A DNA stretch of 64,000 nt from Clostridiales bacterium (GCA_015056125.1 SVGW01000003.1:353-64352); one strand, 5' to 3'; shown: positions 26,589 through 42,610, counted from the first letter of the stretch. The notes: a model not told the origin generated them from the letters alone. Made by a program: numbers and translations.

Positions 26589-26730
26589 CTTGTTTACCTC
26601 TTCTCAGGATATTCTGATTTTATTATAGAAAGAATGTCGGTTTTGTCAAGATGGATGTCGGCAGAAGAATGGCGAATTAATGGATGGATGTGGTATGATA
26701 ATAAAAAAAGATGAATCGGAGGGAGCAAAC

Positions 26731-27603
26731 ATGAAGGAATTTCCAAGGACAGAAGTGGCAGGCATCTCCCTGCCCCGTATGATCATCGGCACCAACTGGA
26801 TGCTGGGCTACAGTCACCGCACGGCTTCCGCAGATGATATGATCCGCGCCCGGTATTCTACCAAAGAAGCGGTATGCGAAACCCTGTGCGCCTATCTGAA
26901 ATATGGCATCGATGCTATGATGGCCCCTTTTGTGGATAACGAATGCCAGCCCAAGCAGGTGTTGATGGATGGCATCCACATGGCAGAGGAGAAAATGGGC
27001 AGGAAAATCATTCTGATCGATACCCCCAGCATTGATGTGAGCGATACGGAAGAGGGGAGAGCCAATGCCAGAAGGAAGATTGAGGCTGTGGCAAAGAATG
27101 GCGCCACCTTCTGCCTGATTCATCATGCGAGCGCAGAACAACTGGTATGCAAGCGCACCGCCACCATTGATCGGCTGCAGGATTACACAAAAATAATCCG
27201 CGAATATGGGATGATTCCCGGCCTTTCCGCTCATATGCCGGAATTAATCATCTATTCCGATGCTCATCCGGAATACGATGTGCAAACCTATATTCAGATC
27301 TATAACTGCATGGGCTTTTTGATGCAAGTGGAAATTGAAAACGTGCGCCGCATCATTGAAAATGCCAAGAAGCCTGTGATGACCATCAAATCCATGGCCG
27401 CTGGCCGCTGCACCCCCTATGTGGGCATTACTTTCTCCTACGCCTCTTTGCGGCCTCAGGATATGGTGACCATCGGCGCCCATACGCCTCGGGAAGTGCA
27501 TGAGGATGTGGAAATTGCCCTGGCCGCCATCGAGCGCCGCTATCCCAATATGGAAAAGCGCAATTCGCCCCAGCAAACCAAAATTCTGGGGGGGAATCAA
27601 TAA
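26731..27603 (+). CDS. Hypothetical protein (290 aa), divergent from the AraC regulator
   Basis: The start MKEFPRTEVAGISLPRMIIGTNW follows GGAGGGAGCAAAC. I recognise no family with confidence; it may be TIM-barrel-like. Confidence 0.55.
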   Translation: MKEFPRTEVAGISLPRMIIGTNWMLGYSHRTASADDMIRARYSTKEAVCETLCAYLKYGIDAMMAPFVDNECQPKQVLMDGIHMAEEKMGRKIILIDTPSIDVSDTEEGRANARRKIEAVAKNGATFCLIHHASAEQLVCKRTATIDRLQDYTKIIREYGMIPGLSAHMPELIIYSDAHPEYDVQTYIQIYNCMGFLMQVEIENVRRIIENAKKPVMTIKSMAAGRCTPYVGITFSYASLRPQDMVTIGAHTPREVHEDVEIALAAIERRYPNMEKRNSPQQTKILGGNQ

Positions 27604-27817: not shown

Positions 27818-28282
27818 TTATTCCCTGCGCTCATCATTGACCAGGTTTTTCAGCTCCTGCATAAAGGTGGGGATATCGGTAAAGGAGCGATAAACAGAGG
27901 CAAAGCGAATATAGGCTACTTCATCCAGCTTGCGCAATTCTTCCATCACCATTTCGCCAATTTTTCGGGTGGTGATTTCTTCTTGCAGGCTATTGTAGGC
28001 AACCTGCTCAATGGAGGAAACGATTTTTTCAATTTCGGCGGCAGATACGGGGCGCTTATGGCAGGCGGCAATAATGCCGCTGCGCACCTTTTTGGCATCA
28101 AAAAGCTCTCGGGAGTTATCCTTCTTGATTACGAGCAGCTGCTGTACTTCAATTTTTTCATATGTAGTGAATCGGCGGCCGCAATTGATGCATTCCCGGC
28201 GGCGACGAATAGAATTGCCGTCATCCGTGGGGCGGGAATCCACCACGCGGCTGTCGGCGCAATTGCAAAACTGACACTTCAT
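27818..28282 (-). CDS. nrdR: Transcriptional repressor NrdR
   Basis: The start MKCQFCNCADSRVVDSRP gives a zinc ribbon, followed by an ATP-cone; the protein is 154 aa. A TAGACA-17-TATAAT promoter lies upstream on the minus strand. Confidence 0.92.
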   Translation of the reverse strand: MKCQFCNCADSRVVDSRPTDDGNSIRRRRECINCGRRFTTYEKIEVQQLLVIKKDNSRELFDAKKVRSGIIAACHKRPVSAAEIEKIVSSIEQVAYNSLQEEITTRKIGEMVMEELRKLDEVAYIRFASVYRSFTDIPTFMQELKNLVNDERRE

Positions 28283-28400
28283 GGATACATCATCCTTCTC
28301 TTGCATGATCGGGTGGGTTTTATTATAACTTGTTCCACAGCATTTGTCTACTATTTTGAAGCAAATTTGTAAGAAAAATTTAACTATTTTAGGAAAGGAG

Positions 28401-28434
28401 AAAAAAAGAAAACCCCGCCGGATGGCGGGGCTTT
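28401..28434 (-). terminator. Intrinsic terminator after the zinc-ribbon gene
   Basis: On the minus strand the hairpin is AAGCCCCGCC-ATCC-GGCGGGGTTT followed by TCTTTTTTT. Confidence 0.85.
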
Positions 28435-28443
28435 GTGTCGTGC

Positions 28444-28725
28444 TTACTTGCGCTGCATCGCGGCGAAGCATTCGCTGCAGTACACGGGACGATCTTCCCG
28501 AGGCAGGAAAGGCACTTTCGTCTGGGCGCCGCAATTGGCACACACGGCATCGTGCATTTCGCGCGGGCCGTTGTTGTTCCGCGCAGCCTTGTGAGCCTGA
28601 CGGCATTCACGGCAGCGGGTGGGCTCATTCTGGAAGCCCTTTTCGGCGTAGAATTCCTGTTCACCGGCAGTGAATACGAATTCATTGCCACAGTCACGGC
28701 ATACCAGCGTCTTGTCCTGATACAT
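28444..28725 (-). CDS. Zinc-ribbon protein with two CxxC-x17-CxxC halves (93 aa)
   Basis: The start MYQDKTLVCRDCGNEFVFTAGEQEFYAEKGFQNEPTRCRECR follows AGGGGGAAC. The second half is CANCG...CSEC. The gene has its own promoter and its own terminator. Confidence 0.8.
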   Translation of the reverse strand: MYQDKTLVCRDCGNEFVFTAGEQEFYAEKGFQNEPTRCRECRQAHKAARNNNGPREMHDAVCANCGAQTKVPFLPREDRPVYCSECFAAMQRK

Positions 28726-28748
28726 TTGTTTGTTCCCCCTGATTAATA

Positions 28749-28968
28749 TGTTGGTTAGCGTCGGCTGACCTGGTCTTTGACCCCACACTCGCCGGCTGGA
28801 ACTTTGCTCTGCGCATTTGCGCCCTCACGCCATCCTCTCGCGCTTTTTGCGCGGCCGGGCTTACATCTAGACCGCACCATGCTCACCGATACTTTGATCG
28901 GCTTACGTGGACCGCTTTGCCTGCGACTGGCATCGGCTTGCAACCACAGACCCGATTTGCCAACCGCC
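28749..28968 (-). ncRNA. Unclassified structured RNA: long 5' leader of the zinc-ribbon gene or a co-transcribed ncRNA (about 220 nt)
   Basis: It lies directly downstream of a TTGCGT-17-TATAAT promoter. The 5' and 3' ends pair (GUUGG with CCAAC), and there are at least six local hairpins with A-rich loops. It has no credible ORF and no terminator before the RBS at about 28735. Confidence 0.45.
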
Positions 28969-28971
28969 GTC

Positions 28972-29000
28972 ATTATAGCCCCTTTTTGCAAGAAACGCAA
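28972..29000 (-). promoter_or_regulatory. Sigma-A-type promoter driving the structured RNA and zinc-ribbon gene
   Basis: On the minus strand, TTGCGT (28995-29000) is separated by 17 nt from TATAAT (28972-28977). Confidence 0.65.
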
Positions 29001-29074
29001 GTAGGTTTCTTGAAAAATTGCGGCTTTTCCAGAAAAAATTGTAAAATAATACTGGAATGAAGGGCGGCGGGCCA

Positions 29075-29932
29075 TTATAGCGCGGCCAGCAGCGCTTCAT
29101 AGGCGGCGCGGCAGCCGACTTGGGCGCATTCATGGGGAGAGCAGCCCTTTAGCAGCGCCATCGTAATCCCTGCGCAAAGGGCATCGCCGGCACCGGTTAG
29201 GGGAATGGCGGGCAAGGAAAGGGCGGGGGATATGCCAACGGAATTTGCATCCGCAAAGCATACGCCCTGAGCGCCCTTGGAGATAAATACATTCTTCACC
29301 CCGGCCTTCACCAGCGCCCGGGCGGCTTTTTCTGCTTCCTGCTCCCCCGTCATCATTTGGGCTTCCAGCAGATTGGGCTTGATGGCGGTGAGATAGGGGA
29401 GAATGGATGTTGCTCTGGGTGCCTTGGTGCAGCTGACAGGATCCAGAATCAGGGGCACGGCAGCGTGACGGGCGATATAGAGCAGGGTTTCGGGGGCAAG
29501 ATTGGCATCCAATACACAGGCGTTCGATTGATTGATGAAAGCCATTTTTTCTTCCATCACCTGCGGGGTAATGGCATCCACTGCCGTCATATCGCTGACG
29601 GCCAGGGCCATATCCCCCTTTTCATCATGAATGCATAAATAGGTGGGGGTGGGGGCGTTGGTTTTCAGCGAAAGGGAAAGATCGATTCCGCTTTGCAGGC
29701 AGAAAGAGGAAAGCAAGGGCTCCCGTTCATCGCTGCCAAGGGCGGTGATGAAAAATACCTCCGCGCCCATGGCCGCAAGGCGTGCGGCAATATTGCGTCC
29801 CACTCCGCCGGGCCGCAGGGTGATCTTGCCGGGATTGGAATCCTTTTCAATCAGCGGCGCGTTGGGGAATGCCAATAGATCCAGGTTCATGCCCCCGACC
29901 ACGGTGATTTTTCTGGTGCTGTTAGGCGTCAT
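29075..29932 (-). CDS. PfkB-family carbohydrate kinase, pseudouridine kinase (YeiC/PsuK)-like
   Basis: DSNPGKITLRPGGVGRNIA and LTGAGDA motifs are present. The start is taken at MTPNSTRKITVVGG (AGGAA is 11 nt upstream); an alternative start is at 29956. Confidence 0.7.
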   Translation of the reverse strand: MTPNSTRKITVVGGMNLDLLAFPNAPLIEKDSNPGKITLRPGGVGRNIAARLAAMGAEVFFITALGSDEREPLLSSFCLQSGIDLSLSLKTNAPTPTYLCIHDEKGDMALAVSDMTAVDAITPQVMEEKMAFINQSNACVLDANLAPETLLYIARHAAVPLILDPVSCTKAPRATSILPYLTAIKPNLLEAQMMTGEQEAEKAARALVKAGVKNVFISKGAQGVCFADANSVGISPALSLPAIPLTGAGDALCAGITMALLKGCSPHECAQVGCRAAYEALLAAL

Positions 29933-30154: not shown

Positions 30155-32290
30155 TTACAGCAGCCTTTCGCCGGTTTGAGCGTCAAATACGGCAGTGGTG
30201 AGGGCGGGGAGATCGGCCATAAAAGTTTTTCCGTTTCGCAGGGTGATTTCTTGCTTACAGCCATTGCAGGTGTTGATCACGATCATGCTGGCATCGGCCA
30301 GGATGGCATCGCCGTTTTCCCCGTAGATATGGACGCCGGCTTCCTTGAGAATGGCCCGCACCCAATCCTTGGTGAAGGTGGGCAGCGCAAAATACCATGC
30401 ATTGCCCTTCCTGGCAGCGCAGCAATTTCCGCTCTTTTCATAGAAGGCCAGGGGCTGCGCTTCTTCATCCGCTACGCAGAAGCAGGGGGAGATCAGGCCG
30501 GCGGCCCGCTTGTCCAATTCGGCCTTATCTGCCGGGAGAAAACCACCCTTGGATACCATGGGGCTGTATTCTTTTTCTTTTTCCACGCGAATGCAGGTCG
30601 CCTGCTGAATATGAGCGGCATCCAGCTTTTGGCCATCGGAATATCCGGCTGCGTAGAAGTAGATAACCTGCTTATCCCCAGTGAGCGCTTTGATTTCTTC
30701 CAGCTGTTCCTTGGAAAGCTGCCAGGCATTGGCAAAAATGATGCAGCGATAGCGGCTCAGTTCCGCCTTTTTCAGATCGCATAGATAAATGCAGTCAAAG
30801 GCGGCGCCGCTGCGGGTGAGGGCATCCTGCACCTGGAATTGCTGATCTACGCAATGGGCATGGGCAAAGTGGGAAGCGGTATCATACACCACCAGCACAT
30901 CGGCAACGGGCGCATAGGGCTTTTCTTCCCGCTTTTCGGCGATACGCTGAATTTTTCCGATTTCATCCATGAGCACAGGGTGATCCCACCAGCCCTTTTT
31001 ATAAAAGATGCTGCCCTCCATGGAGCCTGCGCTGTCCAGCTTAATGACGTGGGGCACAATACGATGATCATAATACCAATAGCCCATGCCGCCCATGAGC
31101 GGAAGCAGGCAATTACGGCGCAGCATGGCGAAGGTTTCAGGATAATGAGCGGGATCGCCGCCTGGGCGGAAGGAGGTGGTGCCCACGGGGTGCTGGTCCA
31201 TTTCAGTGAGCCACAGGGCATGGTTCAAGCGCATGGATTCAAGGAGCCCTCGGGACATGGGCGCGCCTTCCGGCAGGCGGTTATTCATATAGGGGAAGGG
31301 GGCGCACAGGCAATCCACCAGCCCAGGCTCTTTGAAAATCAGATCGGGGCGCAGATGGCCTTCAATGGGGGCGGCATCTCCATTGGCAGAACCCATATAA
31401 TAACCATAGAAGGAACCGGCCAGAATGGGCCAGGGCCAGGTTTCCTTGATAATGCGGCAGAAGTGCAGGATAGCTTCCGGCGGGGTCATCTGGATGGCCA
31501 TCTGAGCGTCCATAATATTGCGGGATTTTACGGGGTCGCGGAAAATGCCTTCATCTCCGGGTTGGGCGAAATTAGGCTGGAAAGGAGCGGTTTCAAGGGT
31601 CACATCATTTCTGCCCCAGGCCTTTTGCAGGTTTTCATCCGTGCCGTAGGTTTCCTTTAAGTATTCCCGGAAGCGCTTTTCCATGCAGGGGCCGTCATCG
31701 TTGCCCCACTGATGCCATTCGCCAAATATACCGCAGGCCACCTGAATGCCCAGAAGATGCTCAGCCTCGGGGGTTTTACTCAGCTGTTCACAAAGCAGCT
31801 TAAGCATTTCGCCTGCCTCTTTGATCCATAATTTGGAGCCCAGGCATACCCGCAGCCTTCCTCGAGCCCCTCCAAAACCAGTGCCGTCATCCCGAATCAT
31901 GCGCACAGGCTCGCCGTCGTCAATGCCGGGGGCGCCATTATACCAGGCCGTTTCCTCGGGATGATCCCGCAGCCACCAATAAGGGGGATTCATATGCAGG
32001 CGAAGCAGCACCATGGAATCTGGATCGGCGTCCAGAACGCCGGCGATTTCTGCCTGAATGGGCTCCACATCAAAGGGCGTGAATTTGTGCCAGGCATAGG
32101 AAAGATTGGTATCGGCTGTTACCATCCTTACGCCCTGGGCGGCAAAATTGGCGATATTGCGCTGTGCCTGGGCCGTGTTGCTCTTGGCGGCGGGGAAATC
32201 GCTGAGACCGTAAATTACAGGGGGCAGCTGCTTTTCGTTTACCATCAGGGCAGGCCTGCCTTCTTTATACTCGATGCGGATATTTTTCAT
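30155..32290 (-). CDS. Putative glycoside hydrolase (GH42-like TIM barrel plus C-terminal domains), function uncertain
   Basis: The start MKNIRIEYKEGRPALMVNEK follows AGGAGG. At 711 aa it has no signal peptide. The layout resembles GH42/GHL-type enzymes, but the family was not verified. Confidence 0.45.
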   Translation of the reverse strand: MKNIRIEYKEGRPALMVNEKQLPPVIYGLSDFPAAKSNTAQAQRNIANFAAQGVRMVTADTNLSYAWHKFTPFDVEPIQAEIAGVLDADPDSMVLLRLHMNPPYWWLRDHPEETAWYNGAPGIDDGEPVRMIRDDGTGFGGARGRLRVCLGSKLWIKEAGEMLKLLCEQLSKTPEAEHLLGIQVACGIFGEWHQWGNDDGPCMEKRFREYLKETYGTDENLQKAWGRNDVTLETAPFQPNFAQPGDEGIFRDPVKSRNIMDAQMAIQMTPPEAILHFCRIIKETWPWPILAGSFYGYYMGSANGDAAPIEGHLRPDLIFKEPGLVDCLCAPFPYMNNRLPEGAPMSRGLLESMRLNHALWLTEMDQHPVGTTSFRPGGDPAHYPETFAMLRRNCLLPLMGGMGYWYYDHRIVPHVIKLDSAGSMEGSIFYKKGWWDHPVLMDEIGKIQRIAEKREEKPYAPVADVLVVYDTASHFAHAHCVDQQFQVQDALTRSGAAFDCIYLCDLKKAELSRYRCIIFANAWQLSKEQLEEIKALTGDKQVIYFYAAGYSDGQKLDAAHIQQATCIRVEKEKEYSPMVSKGGFLPADKAELDKRAAGLISPCFCVADEEAQPLAFYEKSGNCCAARKGNAWYFALPTFTKDWVRAILKEAGVHIYGENGDAILADASMIVINTCNGCKQEITLRNGKTFMADLPALTTAVFDAQTGERLL

Positions 32291-32405
32291 GGTGATACCT
32301 CCTATGGCGATATACAAAGTGGATAGATATATTATGGCCAATAAAGGGGCGAATGTCAATTCGTTTTCCCCAAAAAGGAACGACCGGAATCGTCCCTTTC
32401 CTATA

Positions 32406-33431
32406 TTACAGAATCAGCATGCAATCGCCGAAGGAGAAGAAACGGTATTCCTTTTCCACGGCCTCCCTATAGGATGCCAAGGCCTCATCCTTGCCCATCA
32501 GGGCGGATACCAGCATCAGCAGGGTGCTTTCAGGCAAATGAAAATTGGTCATAAGCACGTCAGTGGCTTTCAGTTTGACCCCGGGAGTGATAAAAATATT
32601 GGTCATTCCCATGCCGGGGTGCACAATGCCCTGGTCATCCGCCGCGGTTTCCAGGGTGCGCACGGAGGTGGTGCCAATGCATACAACGCGGCCGCCACTG
32701 GCCCTGGCAGCATTGATTTTTTCTGCTGCTTCCGGGGTGACTTCGTAATATTCAGAATGCATCACATGCTCGGATACGTCCTCGGCCTTTACAGGGCGGA
32801 AGGTGCCAAGGCCCACATGGAGCAAAACCGGCACGATTTCAATGCCTTTTTCCCGGATGCGCTCCATTACTTCTGGGGTGAAATGCAGCCCGGCGGTGGG
32901 GGCGGCAGCGCTGCCCTCCTGCTTGGCATAGATGGTTTGATACTGGGTGGGGTCCTCCAATTTTTCATGAATGTAGGGCGGAAGGGGCATTTCGCCCAGG
33001 CGATCCAAAAGCTCCTCAAAGATGCCTTCATAAATGAAGCGCACGATGCGGCCGCCGGCGTCGGTGGTATCCCCAATTTCGGCCCGGAGAAGCCCATCCC
33101 CAAAGGAAACGGTGACGCCCTTTTTCAGCCGCCGGCCGGGACGCACAAGCGTTTCCCAATGATCCTTATCCACCCGCTTGAGCAAAAGCACTTCTACCGG
33201 CACATGGGTATCTTCCTTTTCGCCAAGAAGCCGGGCGGGGATCACCTTGGTCTGGTTAATTACCATCACATCCCCGGGCCGGAGATAATCGGGCAGATCC
33301 CGGAAGATTTTATCTTCGTGCAGGCCGCTTTCCCTGTGAATTACCATCATCCGTGCCGCGTCCCGGGGGATCATGGGGGTTTGCGCGATGAGGCGCTCGG
33401 GAAGATCGTAGTAAAAATCTGACGTTTTCAT
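32406..33431 (-). CDS. queA: S-adenosylmethionine:tRNA ribosyltransferase-isomerase
   Basis: The start [19 protein letters not shown] follows AAGAGGA; this is the canonical QueA N-terminus, and the protein is 341 aa. Confidence 0.92.
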
Positions 33432-33576
33432 TTGCAAAATCCTCTTATATTCATCTGGGATCAATTGCTGAATAAAGATCATCCAGAAATGATCCCATTC
33501 GGTTTTCTTGGAGGGGGTGCGGGGGAACCGTTCTTTAACCTTCAAAGAACGGTTCCCCCGCCTTATTACTTCCATG

Positions 33577-34668
33577 TTACACGCCTAGGCCTTTGGCTAC
33601 GTTGACCACGAAATCCTGCACGTTGGTGACGATGGTGCGGGCGCTGAGGCTGCCCCGATCACCCAATTTATTGACAGCAAATTCGGAAATATCCACGCTG
33701 TAGAAATACACCTGGCGGATTGAGCCATCCGGCATCACCCGGAAGGAAGGCGTCATATTCCCGGTGGCGATGGCGTGGAGGGTGGTGGCCATACAAATGA
33801 CGGTGGTAGCCTTGCGGATCTGATTGCGCATGGCATCCTGGGCGGCATATACATCGGCATGCACTTCAGGCAGCGGCCCGTCATCCCGGATGGAACCGGC
33901 CAGCACGAAGGGTACCTGCTTTTTTACGCAGGCATGAATGATGCCATCCTGAATCCCTTCACCCTCAATAAAGGCAGGGATGGAGCCATAGGCGCGAACC
34001 CGATTGATGGTATCGATATGATGATAATGGCCCATGGGATAGCTTTGCTGCGTATAGATATCCTGGCCCAGGGCGGTGCGCTTGTAGGCGCCTTCTAAAT
34101 CATGGGTGGCCAGAGCATTCCCGGCCAGCACGCCGTGCACGAAGCCATTTTGAACCAATCTGGCAAAGGCAGCCCTGGAATCGGAATCAAAGGCTACGGC
34201 AGGGCCCAGCACCCATACGATGTGGCCATGCTCTTTTTCGTGGCGCAAAAGCTCGTAGAGGTGATCGTAATCCCGGGAGAAAGCCGTTTCCCGGGAACGG
34301 CCCTGGCGGAAGGAGAAGGTGTCCTTTTCCTGGACGGATGGGGAAACAAAGCCCTGGGTGTGCACAAAAATCCCTTGGCTGCCGTCCTCTTTGCGGCCAA
34401 CAAATACCAGATCGCCCGCTTTCAGATGGCGAAATTCCTTGATCTGCACCTGTGCTCCATCCCATACGGCCACGCAGTCCATCCGGCTTTCTTTGGCCAG
34501 ATGCCATTCGCCGTTTACCTTAAAGTATTCGGGGAAAATGGTGGTGGCGTGATAATTCTCAGGGGCAACGAAGTCTTTTTCTACGCGCACAAGAGAGGCG
34601 TTGGGCGCAGAAGCGAACGCAGCAATGGAAAAATCCGGATGATGGTAGGGGAGAAGCTGAAACAGCAT
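33577..34668 (-). CDS. LOR/SDH-domain (TIGR00300-like) enzyme, putative ornithine cyclodeaminase-type
   Basis: The ORF is 363 aa. [22 protein letters not shown] and [13 protein letters not shown] recall the TIGR00300 family. The functional assignment comes from memory of that family, not from a search. Confidence 0.5.
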
Positions 34669-34683
34669 ATAATTCCCTTCCTT

Positions 34684-35175
34684 TCAGGGATTTTCTTTGG
34701 AATACTGATAAGCGATCCGGGGAGAACCATCCTGCACATAGATAATGCCGCAGCGCTTGAAGCCGTGCTTTTCTACTACGTGCTGCATGGTTTTATTATC
34801 GTGGTGCGTATCGATGCGAATCTCATCCATCTGCGACAGGGCATAGGCAAAGCATTTGGTGAAAATCCCTTTGGTCTGCCCGTCGGAGGCGATTCGATGG
34901 ATGGTGCCATAGGGCTTATCATGGGGCCATTTTCCATCTTCAATATACGCATAGGTGGGATCGTCGCCCACAATAAAGGCGAATACGCCTCGGATCACGC
35001 CCTCTTCTTCGCACACAAACAGCTCGCCCTTTTCGATATCGCTTACCAAAAGGTCGTGCTTGGGATAGATATTTCCCCACTGGGATGGGTTGCCGGTGCG
35101 GGCCATATAGCCCCGGGCCACGGCATAAACCGCCTCAATGGCGGGCAGATCGCATTTTTGTGCAGGTCGGATCAC
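34684..35175 (-). CDS. GNAT-family N-acetyltransferase (163 aa)
   Basis: The GTG start at 35173-35175 (VIRPAQKCDLPAIEAVY) is 9 nt after GAGGAG. The GNAT core is HRIASDG...GIFTKCF...HDNKTMQHVVEKHGFKRCG. The longer ORF to 35253 lacks an RBS. Confidence 0.75.
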   Translation of the reverse strand: MIRPAQKCDLPAIEAVYAVARGYMARTGNPSQWGNIYPKHDLLVSDIEKGELFVCEEEGVIRGVFAFIVGDDPTYAYIEDGKWPHDKPYGTIHRIASDGQTKGIFTKCFAYALSQMDEIRIDTHHDNKTMQHVVEKHGFKRCGIIYVQDGSPRIAYQYSKENP

Positions 35176-35188
35176 GGTTAGACACTCC

Positions 35189-35500
35189 TCAAAAAGTAAT
35201 CTTTGGATAATCCTTCCATTCCGGCGGAATATCCGAATCCACGGATTGGGCAAAAGGAATGACTTTTGCTTCTTTCGTTTCTTTTTTTCTGTTCAACCAA
35301 TCAATGAAATCTGTTTCATTAAAGCGAACGATCATATATTCTTTTCCTGAAGCATCCTTTACCTTTTTCAGAAAAGGGGATTTTGGCTGTTCGATTTCAT
35401 TTCTGAAACGCCGGGCCAGCTTTTTCAGGTGCTGCGCTACTGCGTCCGGCGCCTGGCAAAGGAGCGGAAAACTGTCTGCGCTCAAGACGATATATTGCAT
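35189..35500 (-). CDS. Hypothetical protein (103 aa)
   Basis: The ORF lies between ruvB and the GNAT gene, with gaps of 12-13 nt on both sides. I recognise no family. Confidence 0.5.
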   Translation of the reverse strand: MQYIVLSADSFPLLCQAPDAVAQHLKKLARRFRNEIEQPKSPFLKKVKDASGKEYMIVRFNETDFIDWLNRKKETKEAKVIPFAQSVDSDIPPEWKDYPKITF

Positions 35501-35512
35501 GAATAGCCTTTC

Positions 35513-36568
35513 TCAATCCAGCAAACTGATCTGCTCTATGTCTCCGGAATCCTGATGAGCCGGCGCGGTGGGGGGCGTTTTGCCTAAGTGCTCGTAGGCA
35601 AGGGGGGTGCAAACGCGCCCTCTTGGGGTGCGCATGATAAAGCCAAGCTGCATGAGATAAGGCTCGTATACATCCTCGATGGTGACGGCGTCTTCTCCCG
35701 TTACAGCAGCCAGGGTATCCAGGCCCACCGGGCCGCCGCCGAATTTTTCGATCATGGCAGAAAGCACAGCCCGGTCAATGCGATCCAGGCCCAAGGCATC
35801 CACATCCTGCATATTCAGGCTATCCCGGGCCACTTCGGCGGTGATATGCCCGTCCCCGCGCACCTGGGCATAGTCCCGCACGCGCTTGAGCAATCGATTA
35901 GCAATACGGGGCGTGCCCCGGCTGCGGCGGGCAATTTCCAGAATCCCCTCGCTGTCATAGGGCATGCCAAGAATCCCGGCGGAGCGGGCCACAATCCGGG
36001 AAAGCTCTTCCGGGGTATACATTTCCAGGCGGAATACAATCCCAAAACGATCCCGCAAGGGAGCGGACAGGCGGCCAGCCCGGGTGGTAGCGCCAACCAA
36101 AGTGAACTTGGGAAGATCCAGGCGCATGGAACGGGCGGTGGGGCCCTTGCCGATCATAATATCCAGAGCGTAATCCTCCATAGCGGGATAGAGCACTTCT
36201 TCTACTGCCCGGGAAAGCCGATGGATTTCATCGATAAACAAAATATCACCGGCGTTTAAGTTGGTGAGGATGGAGGCCAGATCGCCGGGCCGCTCAATGG
36301 CCGGGCCGCTGGTGACGCGGATATTCTGGCCCATTTCGGCAGCCACAATGCAGGCCAGGGTGGTTTTGCCAAGGCCGGGCGGGCCATAGAGCAGAATATG
36401 ATCCAGGGCATCCCGGCGCTTGAGCGCAGCGTTGATATAGATGCCCAGGCTGCTTTTCACCTTTTCCTGGCCAATATATTCTCTTAAATGCCGGGGACGC
36501 AGGGAATTTTCGATATCCTGGTCTTCCTGGCGCATGCCGGTCATTACCAGCCGATCATCCTGTGGCAT
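35513..36568 (-). CDS. ruvB: Holliday junction branch migration ATPase RuvB
   Basis: It carries [15 protein letters not shown], Walker [10 protein letters not shown] and Walker B FIDEIHRL. Confidence 0.95.
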
Positions 36569-36701
36569 AAGGCGCCTCCTTTTTATGGGGAAACCGCTTT
36601 TGAGCCAAAAGCGGTTTCCTCATACCCCTTCCGAAAAGCGAATCGGGATAATTCAAATAACCGCTGATGTCAGTTGCATTCCCCGAGGTAATTATTTCTG
36701 A

Positions 36702-37304
36702 TTAGAACCCAGCCATATTTCTGAGCGCCAAGCGAACCAATTCGTTGGCCGAATCGCTCTGGCCCCGCACCTGGCCAATAGCTTTGGCAGCTTCGGCGGG
36801 CGTGTAGCCCAAAGCCTGCAGGGCGGCCAATGCTTCGGTGGCGGCGTCCTCTTGAATGGGAGTATAGGCGCCGCCGGATACGGGCACGGCGTCCAGATCG
36901 CTTTGATCCACCTTTTCTTTCAATTCCAGCGCCAATCGCTGAGCGGTTTTTTTGCCCACGCCGGGGGCACGGGAAAGGGTGGTGATATCCCCGGTAACGA
37001 TGGCCAAGGTAAGATCCCTCAGCGGCATGCTGCCCAGGATGGAAAGGGCCACCTTGGGGCCAATACCGCTGACGGAAAGAAGCCTTGCAAACATGCTTTT
37101 TTCTTCCCGGGTGGCGAAGCCGAATAATTCCATGGCATCTTCCCGCACGGAAAAATGGGTATACATTTTCATGGATTCGCCCACGGGGGGAATCTCCTGC
37201 AAGGTGGTCATGCTGCAGGAGAGGAGATAGCCCACTCCGCCCACATCGATCACCACTTCGTTCTGGCCCTTTTCTGCTACGGTGCCTTTCAGATATGCGT
37301 ACAT
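36702..37304 (-). CDS. ruvA: Holliday junction DNA helicase subunit RuvA
   Basis: The start is MYAYLKGTV, with HhH motifs LLSVSGIGPKVAL and LSRAPGVGKKTAQR. Confidence 0.93.
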   Translation of the reverse strand: MYAYLKGTVAEKGQNEVVIDVGGVGYLLSCSMTTLQEIPPVGESMKMYTHFSVREDAMELFGFATREEKSMFARLLSVSGIGPKVALSILGSMPLRDLTLAIVTGDITTLSRAPGVGKKTAQRLALELKEKVDQSDLDAVPVSGGAYTPIQEDAATEALAALQALGYTPAEAAKAIGQVRGQSDSANELVRLALRNMAGF

Positions 37305-37318
37305 GCTTTCCTCCCGGA

Positions 37319-37813
37319 TTACTTCATCAAAAACTGCTCCTTCATGCGCCCGGAGGCGGCATGGGTGAGGGTGGCGGCCACGGCATCGGCGGCGTCGTCA
37401 GGACGAATGATTTGGGGCAGGTTCAGCATCATTTTCACCATTTGCTGCACCTGCATTTTATCCGCCTTGCCATAGCCGGTCACGGCCTGCTTGATCTGCA
37501 TGGGGGTGTATTCATAAAGGGGACGGCCGTATTCCGCGCAGGCGCAAAGGGCTGCGCCCCGGGCTGCGCCCACGTTCAGCGCTGTGGTCACGTTCTTGGC
37601 AAAGAACAGCTCTTCAAATACGATTTCATCAGGGGAATAGGTGATGAGCAGCTCTTTCACGCCGGTAAAGATGCTATGCAGCCGATGGGGCATGGCCATA
37701 TCCGGCGGGGTGATAATAGCGCCGCAATCCACTAAATAATGCCTGCTTCCGTTGGTTTCCAATACGCCCCAGCCCATGGTGGCCAGGCCTGGGTCAATCC
37801 CTAAAATCCGCAT
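37319..37813 (-). CDS. ruvC: Crossover junction endodeoxyribonuclease RuvC
   Basis: The start is MRILGIDPGLATMGWGV, the protein is 164 aa, and it sits upstream of ruvA/ruvB. Confidence 0.93.
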   Translation of the reverse strand: MRILGIDPGLATMGWGVLETNGSRHYLVDCGAIITPPDMAMPHRLHSIFTGVKELLITYSPDEIVFEELFFAKNVTTALNVGAARGAALCACAEYGRPLYEYTPMQIKQAVTGYGKADKMQVQQMVKMMLNLPQIIRPDDAADAVAATLTHAASGRMKEQFLMK

Positions 37814-40459: not shown

Positions 40460-42610
40460 TTACATCCGGCCCTTTACCATAGTAAGCGCGATGCGCTTTT
40501 TCTTTTCATCCACATCGACCACCCATACCTTGACCACATCACCCACCTTCACAACTTCGGAGGGATGCCGGATAAAGCGATCTGCCAGCCGGGAAATATG
40601 CACCAGGCCATCCTGATGCACGCCGATATCCACGAAAGCGCCAAAGTCGATGACGTTTCGCACGGTGCCGGTCAATTCCATGCCGGGCTGCAGATCCTTG
40701 ATGTCTAATACATCTGTGCGCAAAACAGGAGCAGGCAGGGAATCGCGGGGGTCACGGCCGGGCTTTTGAAGCTCGGAAAGCACATCTTTCAAGGTGGGCA
40801 GACCAATGGAAAGCTGGGCGGCCAGCTGATCCAGCCCATATTCCTGGGCCTTTTCTCCAATCCCGGGCACGCCGCCGTTTTTCACATCCTTCACATCGTA
40901 GCCAAGGAGGAAAAGGAGCTGCTTGGCAGCGTCATAGCTTTCGGGGTGCACGGCGGTGGCGTCCAGAGGATTTTTGCTGTCCATTACCCGCAAAAATCCT
41001 GCGCACTGCTCAAAGGCCTTGGGCCCCAGCTTGGGCACCTTTTTCAGCGCTGCACGGCTTGGAATGCCGTTTTCTTCCCGATAGGCCACGATATTCTTGG
41101 CCAGGGCGGGGCCAATGCCGGCCACATGAGAAAGCAATTCTGCCGAAGCGGTGGATACTTCAACCCCCACCAGGTTCACGCACTGCTCCACCACGCCGTC
41201 CAAGGCACCGGTTAATTCATTCTGCTTTAAATCATGCTGATACTGGCCCACGCCAATGGCTTTGGGATCAATCTTCACCAGCTCGGCCAGGGGATCCTGC
41301 ATGCGCCGGGCAATGGAAACGGCGCTGCGGAGGGATACATCAAACTCCGGGAATTCCTGGGCGGCCAGCTTGCTGGCGGAATAAACGGAGGCACCGGCCT
41401 CGCTGACGATCACATAGGCAACGCCGGGCATATCGGGAAGCAGGGAAGCAATGAACTGTTCGCTTTCCCGGGAGGCGGTGCCGTTGCCAATGGCAATGGC
41501 GGTGACCCCATGATCCTTTACCATGCGCCTGATGAGCTTGGCTGACTGGGCCTTCTGGAATTCTTGGCCGGGGAGGGTGAAATGCCCTACCCCCGTTTCC
41601 AATACCTTGCCGTTTTCATCGATCACGGCCAATTTGCAGCCCGTGCGGAAGCCGGGGTCCACACCCAGGGTCACTTTCCCCTTGATGGGGGGCTGCATGA
41701 GAAGCTGGTGCAGGTTATCGGAAAACACCCGGATGGCGGATTCATTGGCCCGGTCGGTGAGCTCATTGCGGATTTCCCGCTCCATGGAGGGGAAAAGAAG
41801 GCGTTCCCAGGCGTCCTCGCAGGCCAGGGCCACCTGCTCGGAAGCGGCGGAGCCCGGGCGCACAAAGGCGTTTTTCACATCACGGAGCGCATGCTCATCG
41901 GCGATTTTCAAGGTGACTTTCAAAAATTCTTCCCGCTCGCCCCGGTTTACGGCCAGAATACGGTGGGCAGCCATTTTGGCCACCGGCTCCTGATATTCAT
42001 AATACATGCGGTATACGCTGTCTTCTTCCTTGGCGGCGCGGCTTTCAATCACGCCTTCCCGAAGCAGAAGCGCACGCAGATCCTTACGAAGAGCGGCATC
42101 GTCGCTGACGGATTCGGCAATAATATCCCGGGCGCCTGAAAGGGCGCTTTCGGCGTCCGATACTTCTTTTTCTTCGCTGATGTATTTTGCGGCTTCCGCC
42201 ATGGGATCGGCCTTGGGAAGCTGCAGAAGCAGCCACAGAGCCAAAGGCTCCAGGCCCTTTTCCTTGGCGATGGTGGCCCGGGTGCGGCGCTTGGGGCGGA
42301 AGGGGCGGTAAAGATCCTCCAATTCCGCCAGGGTTTGAGCGGCGGCAAGCTTATGAGAAAGTTCATCCGTCAATACGCCCTGTTCGGTGAGGGATTTTTC
42401 AATTTCCTCCCGGCGCTTTTGCAGTCCGCGCAGGTATTCCAGACGATCGGATAATTCCCGCAGCACCTGATCATCCAATGATCCCGTGGCTTCCTTGCGG
42501 TAGCGGGCGATAAAGGGGATGGTGTTGCCTGCATCCAACAGCTCCATGACGGCTTGCACCTGCTGAGGGCGCAGGGAAAATTCCTTGGCCAGAATGGTTA
42601 CGAAATCCAT
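40460..42610 (-). CDS. tex: Tex-family RNA-binding transcription accessory protein
   Basis: The N-terminus is typical of Tex (FIARYRKE), with YqgF/HhH regions and a C-terminal S1 domain (GTVRNVIDFGAFVDIGVHQDGLVHIS). The protein is 716 aa. Confidence 0.92.
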   Translation of the reverse strand: MDFVTILAKEFSLRPQQVQAVMELLDAGNTIPFIARYRKEATGSLDDQVLRELSDRLEYLRGLQKRREEIEKSLTEQGVLTDELSHKLAAAQTLAELEDLYRPFRPKRRTRATIAKEKGLEPLALWLLLQLPKADPMAEAAKYISEEKEVSDAESALSGARDIIAESVSDDAALRKDLRALLLREGVIESRAAKEEDSVYRMYYEYQEPVAKMAAHRILAVNRGEREEFLKVTLKIADEHALRDVKNAFVRPGSAASEQVALACEDAWERLLFPSMEREIRNELTDRANESAIRVFSDNLHQLLMQPPIKGKVTLGVDPGFRTGCKLAVIDENGKVLETGVGHFTLPGQEFQKAQSAKLIRRMVKDHGVTAIAIGNGTASRESEQFIASLLPDMPGVAYVIVSEAGASVYSASKLAAQEFPEFDVSLRSAVSIARRMQDPLAELVKIDPKAIGVGQYQHDLKQNELTGALDGVVEQCVNLVGVEVSTASAELLSHVAGIGPALAKNIVAYREENGIPSRAALKKVPKLGPKAFEQCAGFLRVMDSKNPLDATAVHPESYDAAKQLLFLLGYDVKDVKNGGVPGIGEKAQEYGLDQLAAQLSIGLPTLKDVLSELQKPGRDPRDSLPAPVLRTDVLDIKDLQPGMELTGTVRNVIDFGAFVDIGVHQDGLVHISRLADRFIRHPSEVVKVGDVVKVWVVDVDEKKKRIALTMVKGRM

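Follow-up and report, generated by a model that had tools for sequence, protein, structure and literature searches.

The stretch of DNA analysed here, a window of 64,000 nucleotides (nt) from a Clostridiales bacterium (GCA_015056125.1 SVGW01000003.1:353-64352), carries on its minus strand a compact locus in which a raiA-motif (ModT) RNA is followed at short distance by a gene for a small zinc-ribbon protein. In the direction of transcription, the locus begins with a −35 element TTGCGT (28995-29000) and a −10 element TATAAT (28972-28977), and continues with the RNA of ~213 nt (28753-28965), an A/U-rich spacer of 27 nt (28726-28752) holding a Shine-Dalgarno sequence AGGGGGA at 28740-28734, an open reading frame (ORF) of 93 aa for a double zinc-ribbon protein (28444-28725) and an intrinsic terminator (28399-28434), whose stem at 28434-28409 (11 bp, 7 G-C) runs into a T-run. 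The RNA itself belongs to a known family; what is new is its genomic context, a conserved raiA-RNA/zinc-ribbon transcription unit, and this is of modest interest.

We scanned the whole window against Rfam 15 at the gathering threshold (cmscan). The sole match in the 64 kb was raiA RNA (RF03072), present in one copy at 28960-28758 (−), with a score of 176.2 bits (the gathering score being 101.3), an E value of 1.1e-44 and coverage of model positions 1-209 of 209; pairing of the outermost helix, P1a, extends both ends to 28965-28753. A preliminary description of this stretch, made from the sequence alone, had recognised no family here and put the RNA forward as novel, while naming raiA among the families against which cmscan should be run. 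That search settles the identity as raiA RNA, and because it returned a clean match to RF03072, the claim of novelty is refuted, the preliminary description itself having held that a clean match to a known family leaves a matter of annotation. The noticeable GC-richness that it reported for the RNA segment is real (60.1%; the window as a whole has 52.9% and the spacer upstream of the RNA 42%), and GC content above the local average has also been published for ModT (PMC11706538). A competing protein-coding reading, a 106-aa ORF at 28755-29075 (−), was rejected, because the match is to an RNA family and the variation here takes the form of compensatory base-pair changes. The nearest loci are labelled as metagenome-assembled genomes of Clostridia, Christensenellales or Oscillospiraceae, and three relatives scored against RF03072 (L001, L065 and L070) gave 161-178 bits. 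Two of these, L065:2682-2964 and L070:2627-2961, carry insertions of ~80 nt and ~140 nt, which we take to lie in the P6/P7 region, and still score 172 and 161 bits; the insertions may be extended P7 arms like those of the actinobacterial subtype. We therefore assign 28965-28753 (−) with high confidence as the raiA-motif RNA gene of this host, with its own promoter and a transcript predicted to start at P1. It is one more ordinary member of its family and an orthologue of ModT from Clostridioides difficile, for which annotation is routine.

The Rfam consensus is the nested model of 2017, and the architecture that we tested is that of Soares 2024 together with the cryo-EM structures (PMC12968392). 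In this current model, P1 is divided into P1a, P1b and P1c with GU and GGU bulges, P3a and P3b are bent by an AU/AAAG loop, and P4 and P5 precede a linker, PK-L, that forms the pseudoknots PK2 and PK1 before continuing as a conserved single strand, UUAGACGUAA, between PK1 and P6, with P7 and P8 as optional helices (PMC12968392). All elements of this architecture could be placed on the window sequence, P2 being absent, which groups the window RNA with that of C. acetobutylicum in one subtype, here with P7 and P8. The 5′ strands of P1 (28942-28965) comprise P1a (GGUUGGC 28965-59 and UCGG 28955-52), the conserved GU bulge at 28951-50, P1b (CUG 28949-47) and P1c (UGGUU 28946-42). The P3 element follows at 28911-28937, with P3a (GCCG/CGGU), the AU/AAAG internal loop, P3b (GCC/GGC) and an apical loop that holds the 5′ strand of PK1, GUCGCA (28927-22); this layout agrees with the cryo-EM description (PMC12968392). 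The 5′ strand of P4 (CCACG 28910-06) and the P5 hairpin (GCCGAU 28902-28897 with AUCGGU 28890-85) occupy 28885-28910, and the PK-L linker at 28861-28879 contributes the UG of PK2 (28879-78), the 3′ strand of PK1 (UGCGGU 28876-71) and the single strand CUAGAUGUAA at 28870-28861. P6 (CCGGC 28858-54 with GCCGG 28796-92; 28792-28858 in all) encloses P7 (28853-28839) and P8 (28835-28799). The remaining 3′ strands lie within 28753-28787, namely P4 (UGUGG 28787-83), the PK2 linker GGUCAAAG (28782-75), P1c (GACCA 28775-71), the conserved GGU bulge, which sits inside CCAGGUCAG at 28773-65, P1b (CAG 28767-65) and P1a (CCGA 28764-61 and GCUAACC 28759-53).

We aligned the window RNA with 39 relatives (MAFFT; alignment A1) and counted pairs for the published architecture. 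Standard pairs made up 95.1% of 2144 cells, compared with 36-43% when the partners were slid by 1-3 columns; 25 of the 54 pairs changed on both sides, and the covariation score of 0.319, compared with 0.127 in shuffles, was reached by none of 500 shuffles. Covariation among homologues, proposed earlier as a check, is thus present. PK1 (6 bp) was paired in 100% of the sequences with three pairs changed on both sides, and P1b, P1c, P3a, P3b and P4 were likewise 100% paired, two pairs of P3a covarying (GCCG-AU-GCC...GGC-AAAG-CGGU for P3, CCACG/UGUGG for P4). All six pairs of P5 covary, P6, P7 and P8a each contain covarying pairs, and the linker columns are nearly invariant. PK2 (2 bp) was paired in 94% and invariant, and therefore offers no covariation evidence. 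P1a was too variable for the MAFFT alignment and was tested instead by duplex energy, its 5′ strand giving −16.2 kcal/mol with its own 3′ end and −8.8 kcal/mol with 3′ ends from other genomes. The published raiA architecture, including PK1, is supported in the window RNA by covariation.

Most hairpins drawn in the preliminary description correspond to helices of this architecture. CCGAU/AUCGG is P5, CGCGC-AAAAA-GCGCG is P7 and GCCCGGC/GCCGGC is P6, which closes a three-way junction, and all three covary; the hairpin at 28919-28937 corresponds to P3, and GCGC-AAAU-GCGC is the tip of P8, the weakest of the matching helices with 75% pairing on the MAFFT alignment. The proposed closing helix exists and covaries, but its register was a few bases off, the pairing being GGUUGGC (28965-28959) with GCUAACC (28759-28753) plus UCGG/CCGA rather than GUUGG/CCAAC. 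Two proposed helices fell away: GUGG/CCAC (28947-44 with 28910-07) showed zero covariation and clashes with P1b/c and P4, and GGUC-AAA-GACC (28782-72) was broken in 15-16 of the 40 sequences without covariation, that stretch being the PK2 linker and the 3′ strand of P1c. As a guide to structure, minimum free energy (MFE) folding was uninformative, and its fold misses the real pseudoknotted architecture. What sets the RNA apart from chance is its covariance-model score and its covariation, not its thermodynamics. Close relatives fall into two P8 subtypes (window 28799-28835 (−); A1 columns 149-192), one of which, in L026, L027, L028, L042 and L051, retains an AGUA...GCGAA E-loop signature.

The earlier call of a minus-strand promoter upstream of the RNA (TTGCGT, 17 nt, TATAAT) had the right coordinates. 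Our consensus promoter scan omitted this promoter from its list, because TTGCGT agrees with TTGACA at only 3/6 positions, and we judged it by comparison across 44 loci in place of that scan. TATAAT was perfect in 43/44 loci, TTG was found at −35 in 44/44, and the 17-nt spacer was kept in 38/44. The predicted start, seven positions past the −10 element and at ~28965 in the window, coincided with the first paired base of P1a in 37/44 loci. A single conserved SigA promoter has been reported for modT (PMC11706538), with which the window data agree. Judged by this conservation, the predicted promoter is real.

From the predicted start to the ATG at 28725 is ~240 nt, as had been described, and the preliminary coordinates of the 93-aa ORF, its ribosome-binding site and its terminator were also correct. 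The terminator scan found no terminator-like site between P1 and the ATG in the window. In all 45 loci measured, the distance from CAGGUCAG of P1 to the ATG was 37-54 nt; the spacers of the relatives are A/U-rich with a GGGGG-type ribosome-binding site, are too short for a terminator plus a promoter, and differ in sequence except for that site. A terminator-like stem and T-run followed the ORF stop in most of 12 relatives inspected. Together, the conserved promoter at P1, the missing pre-ORF terminator, the 37-54 nt gap and the terminator after the ORF fit well with one of the options raised earlier, a stable non-coding RNA (ncRNA) processed from a co-transcript as 6S RNA is in E. coli, and an ncRNA sharing its transcript with the downstream gene is the best-fitting mechanism. 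There is good, if indirect, support for the zinc-ribbon ORF being expressed as a read-through form of the raiA transcript, from which the free RNA would arise by processing or partial termination. A U run of 6-8 directly follows P1 in 17/45 loci (for example L006, L013, L021, L042 and L055); such a run could make P1 a leaky terminator and so fix how much free RNA is made relative to zinc-ribbon mRNA. The next gene, nrdR (27818-28273 (−)), has its own promoter at 28322-28350 (−) with TAGACA, a 17-nt spacer and TATAAT (11/12 consensus matches), and because this near-consensus promoter lies downstream of the zinc-ribbon terminator, nrdR is a separate unit.

The protein encoded by the unit matches the Pfam families zf_Tbcl (PF13451, 92.2 bits against a cut-off of 24, E 1.9e-26) and zf_Tbcl_2 (PF23477, 76.1 bits against 27, E 1.7e-21) and the NCBIfam domain TIGR04272 (76.6 bits against 36). 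Its cysteines are arranged as C9xxC12-x25-C38xxC41 followed by C62xxC65-x17-C83xxC86, so the double CxxC-x17-CxxC layout described earlier holds for the second module, and the first has a linker of x25. We collected 6449 homologues, the closest 74-96% identical; 30 of the 93 residues are invariant columns, including FTAGEQEFYAEKGFQNEP, and the eight cysteines are invariant or nearly so. A confident AF2 model (pLDDT 86) shows two β-β-α zinc modules. Searches of the PDB gave no meaningful match (phmmer E ≥ 0.006; Foldseek E ≥ 0.18, TM-scores ≤ 0.31), only weak ones to C2H2, LIM and Fur-type zinc sites, and therefore permit no functional inference. Small archaeal proteins that carry a CxxC-x17-CxxC domain bind zinc, their role not being established (PMC12704099), and beyond that zinc binding the literature on CxxC-x17-CxxC yielded nothing.

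We assessed how widely RNA and gene occur together in two samples. The first comprised 80 genomic loci from uncultured Clostridia, collected via the zinc-ribbon protein, in which absence of the RNA was tested within 3 kb by Rfam covariance models. A raiA RNA lay directly upstream on the same strand in 44 of the 80 loci, the Christensenellaceae loci L051 and L077 among them, and none was found within 3 kb in the other 36, two of which have too little upstream sequence. The second sample was independent of the protein: metagenome contigs scanned with a conserved raiA core pattern yielded 115 confirmed raiA RNAs, 93 of them with at least 330 nt downstream. Here the zinc-ribbon ORF came next on the same strand in 25/93 loci (27%), starting 21-47 nt past the RNA match, and the remaining 73% lacked the gene. 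The unit was confined to RNAs near the window type and absent with the longer RNAs (~250-260 nt) of the metagenomic sample, which we take to be actinobacterial-type members with P2.

Around this unit the flanks vary, with no flanking gene family common to more than 9/45 loci. The usual synteny of raiA RNA, comFC upstream (74%) and raiA/hpf downstream (66%), is frequent and not defining, and it gives no candidate protein partner (PMC10861870); the distance between the RNA and the next ORF is usually hundreds of nt (PMC10861870, PMC5737381). Our metagenomic sample seems to recover these published neighbours, with ComF-like genes upstream and hpf-like and binding-protein genes downstream (identities from example sequences). 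In 8-9 relatives of the window locus, a ComF-family gene lies immediately upstream of the RNA with RecD2 before it, which gives these loci the appearance of the canonical raiA-RNA locus, the slot usual for raiA/hpf being taken by the zinc-ribbon gene. In the window, the typical comFC/hpf synteny is not found, and the neighbours are a PfkB kinase upstream and, after the zinc-ribbon ORF, nrdR downstream. When NrdR, PfkB and the other window neighbours were compared by tblastn with the 80 loci, no shared synteny emerged: among the 81 loci, nrdR adjoins the zinc-ribbon gene only in the window, and PfkB adjoins only in the window and L001. The position next to nrdR, part of the earlier description, is therefore incidental. 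Conversely, ComF-like, RecD2, DEAD-box and SigH-like neighbour proteins had no tblastn match in the 64-kb window, and no hpf or khpA/B domain was found among the ORFs annotated, the outermost parts of the window lying outside the family search.

Two further features of the sampled loci concern the gene and its hosts. In 26 raiA-negative loci the zinc-ribbon gene directly follows a gene of the sigma-70 family that in NCBIfam matches SigH models best, with scores below the curated cut-offs; examples are L014, L015, L031, L038 and L066 (L066:2145-2954 (+)). Four contigs labelled Phocaeicola dorei, Alloprevotella, Bacteroidaceae and Moraniibacteriota (L007, L022, L023 and L061) carry a zinc-ribbon gene of Clostridia type, accompanied by raiA RNA in L007, L022 and L023, the promoter and spacer of L022 and L023 being identical to those of L025 (labelled Anaerovoracaceae); these four contigs were probably mis-binned. 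Within the window, the housekeeping genes queA, ruvB, ruvA and ruvC lie at 32406-37813 (−), on the promoter side of the RNA gene at a distance of 4-9 kb, with tex at 40460-42610, and the ORFs at 30155-32359 (−) (734 aa) and 26680-27603 (+) (307 aa) that flank the locus have no Pfam or NCBIfam match.

What such an RNA may do in the cell is suggested by its characterised relatives. The raiA-motif RNAs were described in 2017 (PMC5737381) and are found, in single copy, in >2500 species of Bacillota and Actinomycetota. Deletion of raiA RNA cuts sporulation and aggregation, and a plasmid rescues the defect (PMC10861870); deletion of ModT in C. difficile delays the stationary-phase transition, blocks sporulation and raises cyclic di-GMP (PMC11706538). 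In that species a 215-nt form is enough in trans, and read-through to a downstream terminator yields a 260-nt form (PMC11706538); complementation in trans is on record for two clostridia (PMC10861870, PMC11706538). The KhpA-KhpB heterodimer binds raiA RNA with a Kd of ~2 µM (PMC12968392), small-molecule binding was not found and the riboswitch idea was set aside (PMC10861870, PMC11706538, PMC5737381), and published work has established no biochemical activity for the RNA.

Taken as a whole, the explanation that we consider very likely is that the locus makes a raiA/ModT RNA from its own promoter, that by homology this RNA acts in trans, and that the zinc-ribbon mRNA is its read-through form. 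The housekeeping-type promoter (TTGCGT, 17 nt, TATAAT) would drive the RNA, with transcription predicted to start at the first base of P1, and by homology the RNA would fold into a compact pseudoknotted core of P3a/b, P4, PK1 and PK2 from which P1 protrudes. By analogy with the characterised members, this abundant and stable RNA would act in trans in timely stationary-phase transition, sporulation and aggregation, and would be bound by KhpA-KhpB with low-micromolar affinity; we infer the cellular role by transfer from C. acetobutylicum and C. difficile. Because no terminator follows P1, RNA polymerase would read on through the 27-nt spacer and the 93-aa ORF and halt at the terminator at 28434-28399. 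The zinc-ribbon mRNA would thus be the long read-through form, and the free RNA of ~213 nt would come from 3′ processing or from partial termination after P1.

Several points weigh against this explanation. The window lacks a U-tract after P1, unlike 17/45 relatives, which leaves the route to the short form obscure here, and the exact transcript ends, the co-transcription and the processing step are ones that we infer. On the structural side, the MFE of the 243-nt region is undistinguished from chance (z-score −0.68), only 53% of cells in P8b and 75% in P8c form pairs on the MAFFT alignment, probably in part through misalignment, and the window-type P8 (GGCGUGAGG...AGAGCAAAG) is without the AGUA...GCGAA signature, the E-loop that docks P8 onto PK1 in cryo-EM structures (PMC12968392). 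Rfam labels RF03072 with the type "Cis-reg; riboswitch", and the host belongs to an uncultured Clostridia lineage, to which the ModT phenotype may not carry over literally.

A separate matter is why RNA and gene are joined. The arrangement may reflect promoter hitch-hiking without functional coupling, the ORF having landed after a very strong promoter and shed its own, or the terminator of the RNA having been lost, and the result having been kept by descent in one clade; this is a serious possibility, if short of an even chance. E. coli offers a precedent in its pairing of 6S RNA and ygfA, the unit is confined to one Clostridia group whose RNAs are those closest to the window RNA, and repeated loss of terminators downstream of the RNA has been proposed by the ModT authors (PMC11706538). 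Against it, the unit outlasts extensive rearrangement on either side, and does so among RNA-carrying loci whose zinc-ribbon identities range from 92% to 67%, which speaks for selection acting on the linkage or, at a minimum, on co-expression.

In another reading, the zinc-ribbon protein would be a functional partner of the RNA, for example a binder, chaperone or effector, encoded in one unit so that both are made together. We think this unlikely. The presence of the unit in 44/80 genomic and 25/93 protein-independent metagenomic loci, while no flanking gene recurs in more than 9/45, speaks for it, as do the very strong conservation of the protein (30 invariant columns in 93 residues, and 74-94% identity to it among the homologues aligned), the room left by a literature that names no synteny-based protein partner (PMC10861870) and the SigH-like gene before the zinc-ribbon gene in raiA-negative genomes, which suggests a transition-phase theme. 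However, the gene occurs without an adjacent raiA RNA in 34-36 loci and the RNA without the gene in 73% of those sampled, the protein is roughly charge-neutral (14 K/R against 13 D/E by our own count) and shows no structural or sequence likeness to known RNA-binding proteins in the PDB searches, the known binders are KhpA and KhpB, and sharing of a strong promoter explains co-transcription equally well.

That the raiA structure is mainly a cis-acting 5′ untranslated region (UTR) element of the zinc-ribbon mRNA, whether riboswitch or thermosensor (both raised in the preliminary description) or mRNA stabiliser, is very improbable. In its favour, the RNA shortly precedes the start codon, on one strand with it and without a terminator, in every positive locus (27 nt in the window), carries the Rfam type just mentioned and could, closed by P1, give the mRNA protection against 5′ decay. 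Against it, we saw neither an expression platform nor a conserved alternative pairing (such pairings were not searched for systematically), the spacers are not conserved save for the ribosome-binding site, the same RNA turns up elsewhere, often with the next gene hundreds of nt away and in 73% of metagenomic loci without the zinc-ribbon gene, and the family acts in trans in two species with no small-molecule binding (PMC10861870, PMC11706538, PMC5737381). Pairing of the Shine-Dalgarno sequence with the 3′ strand of P8a (GUUCC/GGAAC), seen in the MFE fold, was rejected, as it is not kept in the sequences of the relatives.

The raiA/ModT RNAs are among the most widespread and abundant structured RNAs of bacteria still without a known biochemical function, and their published gene neighbourhoods offer neither a unifying theme nor a partner. 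Linkage to a zinc-ribbon gene by a shared promoter, seen in about a quarter of the sampled metagenomic raiA loci and kept while the flanks change, is a concrete lead. We found no mention of raiA/ModT together with a zinc ribbon in the searchable literature, which does not take in the supplementary neighbourhood table of Soares 2024. The linkage may mean a functional partnership or merely shared use of a strong, growth-phase-tuned promoter, and the data fit both. The stronger version, a dedicated raiA-RNA/zinc-ribbon module made from a single transcript in a large group of uncultured gut and rumen Clostridia (Christensenellales and relatives), with the protein as the missing partner or functional read-out, is a long shot that we would put at well under an even chance; if true, it would provide a direct experimental handle on the biochemical function of raiA RNA. 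More generally, raiA RNA is not always a free-standing gene; the form that it takes on read-through would, in this clade, be an mRNA.

Compared with known systems, the locus resembles riboswitch leaders in its 5′ UTR position, its complex conserved fold and its Rfam type label, and differs from them in that raiA RNA has no evident expression platform, no known ligand, complementation in trans in two species and a variable context. The 6S RNA of E. coli (ssrS) is abundant and growth-phase-linked and comes first in a transcript with ygfA, the mature RNA being freed by processing. The order of a structured ncRNA first and a protein gene second is the same here, an analogy only, drawn from general knowledge; there is no Rfam 6S match in the window, and raiA RNA is a pseudoknotted globular core rather than a mimic of an open promoter. 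With the raiA/ModT family the window RNA shares a full-length covariance-model match, P1 and P3-P8, PK1, PK2, the PK-L linker, a SigA-type promoter, raised GC content and a Bacillota host, and some relatives of its locus share the ComF-family gene upstream. It departs from the family in that 27 nt, without a terminator, separate its end from a translated ORF, where the literature describes independent transcripts hundreds of nt from the next gene, in being followed by a double zinc-ribbon gene in place of raiA/hpf, a periplasmic binding protein or gntR, and in a P8 without the E-loop signature. The closest parallel is the long isoform of ModT in C. difficile, C. perfringens and P. sordellii, which likewise results from read-through past P1 to an intrinsic terminator and shares its 5′ end and fold with the short form; there the extension is ~45 nt and non-coding, whereas here it would be ~330 nt and contain a conserved ORF with a strong ribosome-binding site.

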